This document shows positions 56,045 through 56,190 of a stretch of DNA of 64,000 nucleotides, in pieces. The position numbers were made by a program, and so were the translations under genes. Location: the NCBI RefSeq assembly GCF_003334315.1, contig NZ_QOWR01000025.1; one strand, given 5' to 3'. Each line of letters starts with the position of its first letter. The stretch's first letter is position 1. Under the pieces are notes generated by a model, which had not been told where the DNA came from, did no database searches, and was given only the letters and a program-made list of their open reading frames with translations. Source of the stretch: Escherichia coli (GTDB lineage: Bacteria > Pseudomonadota > Gammaproteobacteria > Enterobacterales > Enterobacteriaceae).

Positions 56045-56190
56045 GTTCTTCTGTTACAAGACAGAAGAAGATATCTCTCAAAATTTGTGCTCGATCGGTC
56101 CCCTCTCCCTTGAGGGAGAGGGTTAGGGTGAGGGTGAACGTGCGCGCTGATGCCCTCACCCCGGCCCTCTCCCACAGGGAGAGGGAGAAA
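56045..56190. repeat. GC-rich compound palindromic element between hrpB and mrcB
   Basis: Four inverted repeats: cttctgt..acagaag; ccctctccc-ttga-gggagaggg; gggtgagggtg..ccctcacccc; ccctctccc-acag-ggagaggga. The 2nd and 4th are near-identical palindromes flanking the 3rd. Confidence 0.7.

Follow-up and report, generated by a model that had tools for sequence, protein, structure and literature searches.

What is the GC-rich palindromic sequence that lies between hrpB and mrcB in Escherichia coli, and does it do anything for the genes on either side? An earlier note on the 64,000-nucleotide stretch of DNA analyzed here (the window) described four inverted repeats there and offered three readings: membership of a family of dispersed intergenic repeats, a terminator of hrpB combined with an insulator of the mrcB promoter, or a protein-binding site. 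The answer that we favor, with a probability of roughly 0.8, is that the element is a known BoxC pair, carried at this locus as a dispensable passenger, which destabilizes the spacer in which it sits.

The Locus and Its Palindrome

The window runs in the reverse orientation relative to K-12 (window coordinate = 220732 minus K-12 coordinate), and its coordinates confirm that the site lies between hrpB (56198–58672, minus strand, with its stop-side end at 56198) and mrcB (minus strand, with the coding sequence starting at 56002). The spacer of 195 nt is identical to that of MG1655 (NC_000913.3 164535–164729). Within mrcB itself, codon 2 (55997–55999) is ACC (Thr) in the window versus GCC (Ala) in MG1655 and in 8/8 other aligned E. 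coli alleles.

All four inverted repeats were found by a repeat search, although they do not make up one compound element as had been supposed. The three GC-rich ones, I6 (56101–56110/56113–56122), I11 (56165–56173/56177–56185) and the long cross-pairing I1 (56108–56134 with 56153–56179), belong to a single near-perfect palindrome of 85 bp (56101–56185), whereas the fourth, the AT-rich I10 (56046–56054/56061–56069), is a separate leader hairpin, to which we return below. The two short hairpins with CCCTCTCCC and GGGAGAGGG arms, described as having 4-nt loops, are both present, but the second loop has 3 nt (ACA); the central arms, given as 11 and 10 nt around a 16-nt gap, actually measure 9 nt (GGGTGAGGG and CCCTCACCC) and stand 18 nt apart. 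Read on the hrpB-to-mrcB strand, the order of blocks in the palindrome is C-block, G-block, G′-block, 16-nt spacer, C′-block, C-block, G-block, and the module CCCTCTCCC-N(2–6)-GGGAGAGGG occurs exactly twice in the 64-kb window compared with 0.00 expected from 100 dinucleotide-preserving shuffles. What the earlier note overlooked is the architecture that defines the family, a C-block followed by a complementary G-block and a second G-block, which is compatible with a purine-motif intrastrand triplex and at the same time with a G-quadruplex (G4) motif.

A Catalogued BoxC Pair

The element consists of two BoxC units, known also as PIT elements and as TMECO, set tail to tail in inverted orientation, and the pair is catalogued at K-12 164547–164631. 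We base this identification on a match to the published consensus, on letter identity with two listed units, on the K-12-identical spacer and on the listing of the pair in a second survey. The TMECO consensus, 5′-CCCTCNCCC N3-6 GGGNGAGGG N3 GGGNGAGGG-3′, taken from Holder et al. 2015 (PMC4666352), has two exact matches only in the window, at 56101–56134 (plus strand) and 56185–56153 (minus strand), with 0.00 expected in shuffles. Table 1 of that paper gives 23 TMECO units in MG1655, and the two halves of the element are identical, letter for letter, to its no. 2 (CCCTCTCCCTTGAGGGAGAGGGTTAGGGTGAGGGT, 164631–164597, type A) and no. 1 (CCCTCTCCCTGTGGGAGAGGGCCGGGGTGAGGGC, 164547–164580, type B). 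The type A unit, with TTA as its second loop, reads CCCTCTCCC-TTGA-GGGAGAGGG-TTA-GGGTGAGGG-T at 56101–56135 on the plus strand, and the type B unit, with CCG as its second loop, reads CCCTCTCCC-TGT-GGGAGAGGG-CCG-GGGTGAGGG-C at 56152–56185 on the minus strand; the 16 nt between the inverted units (56136–56151), delimited by sequence, repeat search and fold, form the predicted apex of the long hairpin.

The same paper equates TMECO with the repeats described as BoxC in the early 1990s, which Hoyne and Maher later came upon again and called potential intrastrand triplex (PIT) elements. Kaplan et al. 2016 (PMC5100583) tabulated the hrpB-mrcB pair by the same 21-nt G-tracts, as HPG1 #6 with midpoint 164608 on the minus strand (GGGAGAGGGTTAGGGTGAGGG, 56114–56134, plus strand of the window) and HPG2 #5 with midpoint 164569 on the plus strand (GGGAGAGGGCCGGGGTGAGGG, 56153–56173, minus strand of the window). 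The element is therefore already known at exactly this locus, from these two published surveys, and deserves the label BoxC/PIT/TMECO rather than that of an unexplained sequence; RefSeq annotation leaves the repeat unmarked at hrpB-mrcB. It shares with the described family the inverted pairing of type A with type B, the intergenic position and the flanks, and in itself differs from that family in nothing.

The suggestion of a dispersed intergenic repeat of Box C kind was thus right, as was the statement that this is not a REP unit. Using REP and ERIC consensus sequences, the best local score of the spacer was 9 against the REP unit of about 35 nt (shuffled mean 8.1, maximum 13) and 8 against the ERIC core (shuffled mean 8.5), so that among the catalogued E. 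coli repeat families compared it is BoxC, and neither REP nor ERIC, that the element resembles. An Rfam scan at a permissive threshold gave no family at its gathering threshold, the only matches being eukaryotic miRNA-precursor models at 15–29 bits versus thresholds of 58–105, which we rejected as sub-threshold, generic long-hairpin similarity. Like REP/BIME sequences, BoxC is a short non-coding repeat, GC-rich, palindromic, intergenic and dispersed, in E. coli and in many other Enterobacteriaceae; unlike them it has no similarity to the REP consensus, possesses a third G-block and is present in K-12 in 23 rather than several hundred copies, and we know of no RAYT-type enzyme and no gyrase, IHF or Pol I binding for BoxC. 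Bergler et al. 1992 and Hoyne et al. 2000 are reportedly, beside Holder et al. 2015, the sources on BoxC, PIT and TMECO. Relative to the passages compared from these three, what is new here is minor: allele frequencies in 5426 genomes, an orientation flip (32 E. coli genomes and other genera), occupancy of the spacer in Enterobacter, Leclercia, Lelliottia and further genera, and the leader hairpin.

Family Copies and Flanks

The module does have other genomic copies, as the earlier note had proposed to check: a 106-nt query matched 4508 of the 5426 complete E. coli genomes, at a median of 5 places per genome and a maximum of 14. Seventeen units retrieved from 12 K-12 loci, whose published coordinates agree with NC_000913.3, have common flanks and a common layout. 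Type A units at K-12 loci are preceded by a G[C/T]GC..AC[G/A]GTC flank and the B units examined in K-12 by (G)TTTTCT/C or a close variant, and it is these family-wide flanks that set the limits of the hrpB-mrcB repeat at 56087–56192. The whole composite of 106 bp consists of the type A flank (GTGCTCGATCGGTC, 56087–56100, plus strand, related also to that of a collapsed phnD-phnE paralogue), unit A, the spacer, the inverted unit B and the type B flank (GTTTTCT, 56186–56192, minus strand).

The same composite of B unit, spacer and inverted A unit is found with shared flanks at fepB-entC, ygfF-gcvP and alx-sstT in K-12, the hrpB-mrcB copy having a spacer 11 nt shorter than these three, and inverted pairing of type A (TTA) with type B (CCG) occurs at lldD-trmL as well. 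The B unit with its tail CATCAGCGCGCAC is common to single B units, namely at ilvC-ppiC and, with few substitutions, at xynR-argF. Two K-12 BoxC units, at yagA-yagE (L018, 281840–282400) and xynR-argF (L019, 288980–289540), lie inside the annotated cryptic prophage CP4-6, and the yagA-yagE copy is preceded by the remnant of a second, collapsed unit.

Alleles in the E. coli Population

A 501-nt query spanning the spacer sorted the E. coli alleles into length classes, from which eight representatives were fetched and aligned, and diagnostic queries were then counted over the 5426 complete genomes. The intact, K-12-type element is present in 3234 genomes and the intact element in opposite orientation in 32; the spacer is empty in 1469 (27%), and about 690, obtained by subtraction, have other forms, among them collapsed remnants whose limits are direct repeats of the element itself. 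Conservation at the locus, on which the earlier note had staked its reading, is accordingly partial, with the intact form missing from hrpB-mrcB in about 40% of complete E. coli genomes. The deletions also bear on the open reading frames 55989–56195 and 56150–56344, which had been taken for artifacts; this suspicion is reasonable because both cross a repeat that is deleted in many strains and the deleted lengths are not all divisible by three.

The full allele is that of K-12 and O157:H7, and an O145:H28 allele has a 12-nt internal deletion and a mutation in the third block. Alleles collapsed to a single hairpin are of two kinds. That of O111:H8 retains the TGT loop and that of JX21CE8 the TCAA loop, which shows that different breakpoints were used in the two deletions. 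Junction queries for the collapsed alleles (47/48 nt) gave counts of 584 and 589 that are contaminated by the near-identical collapsed hairpin of phnD-phnE. The empty allele has a spacer of 93 nt (e.g. O2:H1 strain HM670), and matches to its junction query include an ST131 strain and 'clone D i14'.

The element contains two pairs of direct repeats, CCCTCTCCCT with copies 63 nt apart and GGGAGAGGG with copies 64 nt apart, and deletion between them would give exactly the collapsed alleles. The element thus makes its spacer structurally unstable. The internal direct repeats of 9–10 nt, which the palindrome would draw close to each other, bound the deletions that leave a single hairpin, and the position of the deletion boundaries at these repeats points to replication slippage as the probable mechanism. 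The allele series agrees with what Holder et al. (PMC4666352) report for TMECO loci, namely "genomic instability" and a "palindrome effect". In the phnD-phnE spacer of two E. coli strains (L101, L102) we observed a collapsed BoxC hairpin with the flanks GTTTTCT...GACCGATCGAGCAC seen in collapsed hrpB-mrcB alleles, and there too both TGT-loop and TCAA-loop versions exist, which points to the same decay pathway at a second locus. Right after the stop codon, empty alleles have GAAAAC or GAAGAC, which resembles the flank of the B unit; because of this retained sequence they may, with low confidence, be deletion remnants rather than sites that were never occupied. With full, collapsed, empty and inverted alleles occurring naturally beside the gene of an important cell-wall synthase, hrpB-mrcB is a convenient place for studying effects of BoxC on the expression of neighboring genes and on genome stability.

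The Spacer in Other Genera and the Orientation of the Element

A search with the HrpB C-terminus yielded 80 orthologous loci from species-representative genomes, in 68 of which the spacer could be delimited. At least one full BoxC unit is present in 15 of these 68 spacers, and degenerate or collapsed remnants in 10 more. BoxC-bearing spacers come from Escherichia, Enterobacter, Leclercia, Lelliottia, Intestinirhabdus, Huaxiibacter, Kluyvera ascorbata and further Enterobacteriaceae (occupied loci noted: L050, L052–L056, L067–L069, L078, L088, L089, L092 and L097, at about 1650–1900 in each), with as many as five units in the 509-nt spacer of Enterobacteriaceae bacterium RIT691 (L078). In the other genera the B unit is on the antisense strand and adjoins AAATTTTGAGAG on the mrcB side, and in Enterobacter, Leclercia and Lelliottia it is followed by AGAAAAC, the type B flank. 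The BoxC core is almost invariant across genera, and at hrpB-mrcB it is so between E. coli and Lelliottia, whereas the neighboring leader has diverged; together with the occupancy of several genera, this near-invariance could be due not to neutrality but to selection, targeting or gene conversion.

The spacers of Citrobacter, Salmonella arizonae, Kosakonia and Trabulsiella showed no BoxC blocks, and several of them have a REP element instead. REP-like units (gccggataaggc...gccgcatccggc) fill the spacer in Citrobacter, Salmonella arizonae and Leclercia (L028, L039, L050 and L052, at about 1655–1720). The spacers of Enterobacter, Intestinirhabdus and Lelliottia contain an AT-rich hairpin followed by a T-run (aaagactttcctgtcaggaaagtcttgctgtttatttt; L056, L057, L058 and L063, at about 1740–1790), which looks like a true terminator in those genera.

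The full composite of E. coli strain E69 and of one Lelliottia genome, an A unit followed by an inverted B unit, is the K-12 element reversed (L023:1650–1775 and L067:1653–1775 compared with window 56087–56197). When 56087–56197 was flipped in silico, the global alignment score rose from 210 to 299 against E69 and from 150 to 245 against Lelliottia. The flipped segment includes GGTTGG (56192–56197), the reverse complement of CCAACC, and CCAACC in turn is similar to a sequence, CCAAACC or CCAAAGC, present in forward orientation at that position in E. albertii, in E. whittamii and in empty E. coli alleles. Because the alignment scores rise on flipping and the native CCAACC flank is reversed as well, we conclude with moderate confidence that the window allele probably arose by an inversion of about 111 bp (56087–56197) relative to strain E69, Lelliottia and Enterobacter, in which the whole palindrome would have been turned around in the lineage that the window represents. 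An independent second insertion as the source of the opposite orientation is less likely, as 5–6 nt of native flank flipped along with the element.

Role at hrpB-mrcB

At this locus the element is most likely a dispensable passenger, lying after the hrpB stop codon and ahead of the conserved mrcB leader, where it would neither terminate hrpB transcription nor supply the mrcB promoter. Since more than one-quarter of genomes have an empty spacer, it cannot be required for the expression of hrpB or mrcB. The proposal of an hrpB terminator joined to an mrcB promoter insulator is unsupported on this count (1469/5426 genomes empty) and on two others. A scan of 55900–56300 for sigma-70-like and terminator-like consensus sequences found no site, with 0 terminator-like sites on either strand, and no T-run follows the stem on either strand (sense GACCGATCG, antisense AGAAAACC). 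Moreover, Hoyne & Maher 2002, as summarized in PMC4666352, found PIT elements to be without promoter, terminator or in vivo polymerase-blocking activity. The element does resemble an intrinsic terminator in being a GC-rich stem-loop just 3′ of a stop codon, but it has no U-tract, and its stem is many times longer than termination needs.

A promoter is predicted nearby. Genomic SELEX placed an RpoD-holoenzyme site in the hrpB-mrcB spacer, with a predicted promoter TTGAGA-17-TGTAAC (Shimada et al., PMC3946193), which puts the predicted −35 hexamer at 56081–56076 and the predicted −10 hexamer at 56058–56053 on the minus strand, so that only 5 nt separate the end of the element from the predicted −35 downstream of it. 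Given this proximity and the in vitro binding of the holoenzyme to the spacer, the element may conceivably have a quantitative effect on the expression of mrcB.

Such an effect might come from a structural switch in the DNA (triplex, G-quadruplex, hairpin or cruciform), by which the element, as a functional cis-element, would modulate the mrcB promoter or local replication and recombination. Besides its place next to the predicted −35, the striking potential of BoxC for non-B DNA structures speaks for this reading. Each unit has 9/9 Watson-Crick pairs and 9/9 allowed purine-motif triplets (class II: G·G-C, A·A-T and T·A-T), so that both hrpB-mrcB units obey the triplet rule perfectly, and each is at the same time a G3N3G3N3G3N3G3 motif with four G3 tracts and 3-nt loops. 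Judged by its sequence, a single-stranded unit has three structures potentially open to it (hairpin, purine-motif intrastrand triplex, G-quadruplex), and the pair, as a long palindrome, could be extruded into a hairpin or a cruciform. According to Holder et al. (PMC4666352), oligonucleotides of type A and type B form a triplex by CD and NMR, that of the consensus being very stable (Tm 70–82 °C), and for motif oligonucleotides the ion present decides between G4 and hairpin (PMC5100583); the HPG reading of this one sequence is a G4 and the TMECO reading a triplex, both putative in vivo. Outside the element, G3-N(1–7) ×4 motifs of G-quadruplex type occur in the window only near 5575 (plus strand) and 49076 (minus strand), where the BoxC consensus is unmatched. 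BoxC also occupies the hrpB-mrcB spacer in at least 6 genera. Against a switch, however, the double-stranded form was found as duplex only and in vivo DMS footprinting showed no triplex protection (PMC4666352), and the same paper summarizes the absence of in vivo effects cited above; in addition, 27% of E. coli genomes have an empty spacer, in others a collapsed hairpin is all that is left, the third block being gone, and orientation relative to mrcB varies among lineages. We therefore regard a switch as unlikely.

The structure might act instead in RNA, as a hairpin in the hrpB 3′ UTR or in read-through transcripts that blocks 3′ exonucleases, is cut by RNase III or causes RNA polymerase to pause or terminate. 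A stable fold on the 3′ side of hrpB, which the earlier note had suggested looking for, is indeed predicted: the transcript-sense strand of 56040–56200 folds at −84 kcal/mol (z = −7.6), with 0/200 shuffles as good. Folded as one long hairpin the composite is predicted to reach −74 kcal/mol as RNA and −34 kcal/mol as DNA, compared with −60 and −30 kcal/mol for three local hairpins, and in these models the long hairpin and the three GC hairpins are alternatives to each other. The hairpin survives inversion, because the element is a palindrome, and collapsed alleles retain a GC hairpin of 9–10 bp. The missing U-tract and the empty scan for terminator-like sites count against an action in RNA, as do the empty alleles, which have no substitute structure. 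Terminator activity, moreover, is reported absent (PMC4666352), and the commonest family variant has a conserved G-A mismatch in the stem, not compensatory changes. Taken together, these data make an RNA-level role decidedly unlikely.

We give equally little credence to a mobile element of the MITE or REP/RAYT kind, moved by a site- or structure-specific enzyme, for which presence in several genera would mean repeated targeted insertion. The flanks at the ends of the composite are common to the family, the composite as a whole is repeated at several loci, the hrpB-mrcB spacer is filled in several genera and in both orientations, and E. coli genomes hold 1–14 BLAST places each. It is also MITE-like in being small, non-coding, dispersed, terminally symmetrical by inversion and variable in copy number among strains. 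The TMECO consensus is, furthermore, frequent in IMG/VR viral contigs, with at least 120 stretches (L103–L222) that show many loop variants and a G+C content of 32–74%; these matches sit uneasily with the published statement that the motif has no phage association, and may represent prophage borders or misclassified host DNA. Comparison of filled (GTATTCGTAAGGTTGG[element]AAATTTT) with empty (GTATTCGTGAAGACCAAAGCAAATTT) alleles, however, revealed neither a target-site duplication nor a clean insertion boundary, on which grounds MITE-type insertion with target duplication was rejected, and the native CCAACC flank that flipped along with the element favors inversion over a second insertion. To our knowledge BoxC has neither an associated transposase nor a parent insertion sequence.

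There is a slight chance that the element is an anciently retained or specifically targeted, flippable sequence upstream of the mrcB promoter in several genera, serving as a structural modulator (cruciform, triplex or G4) of PBP1b expression or of local recombination. A specific protein-binding site, whether an operator or a site for a nucleoid protein, is hardly credible, since nothing but its palindromic symmetry and its highly conserved blocks would suggest one, while many strains are missing the element, the TMECO/PIT and HPG papers (PMC4666352, PMC5100583) report no binding protein, and the former reports no common function among the neighbor genes of family copies.

A Separate Stem-Loop in the mrcB Leader

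The fourth inverted repeat, TTCTTCTGT-N6-ACAGAAGAA at 56046–56069, is a stem-loop in the mrcB leader, separate from BoxC, since it is present in every allele without the GC-rich element and in all genera examined. The leader runs from TTGAGAGAT to the mrcB ATG over 87–88 nt (window 55998–56085, minus strand), and its length is constant in 60 loci from about 20 genera of Enterobacteriaceae. Rfam has no family that matches the stem-loop. The stem is 95% paired, with compensatory changes at five positions and 76 double-change cells compared with 18 ± 8 in shuffles (0/500), clearly above slid-partner controls, and RNAalifold predicts it independently; a second small helix lies at about 56022–56037. 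The predicted −10 hexamer (Shimada et al., PMC3946193) falls in the variable loop of this hairpin. Depending on where transcription starts, the stem-loop would be either RNA, in the 5′ UTR, or promoter DNA, and it may be an undescribed cis-element of mrcB.
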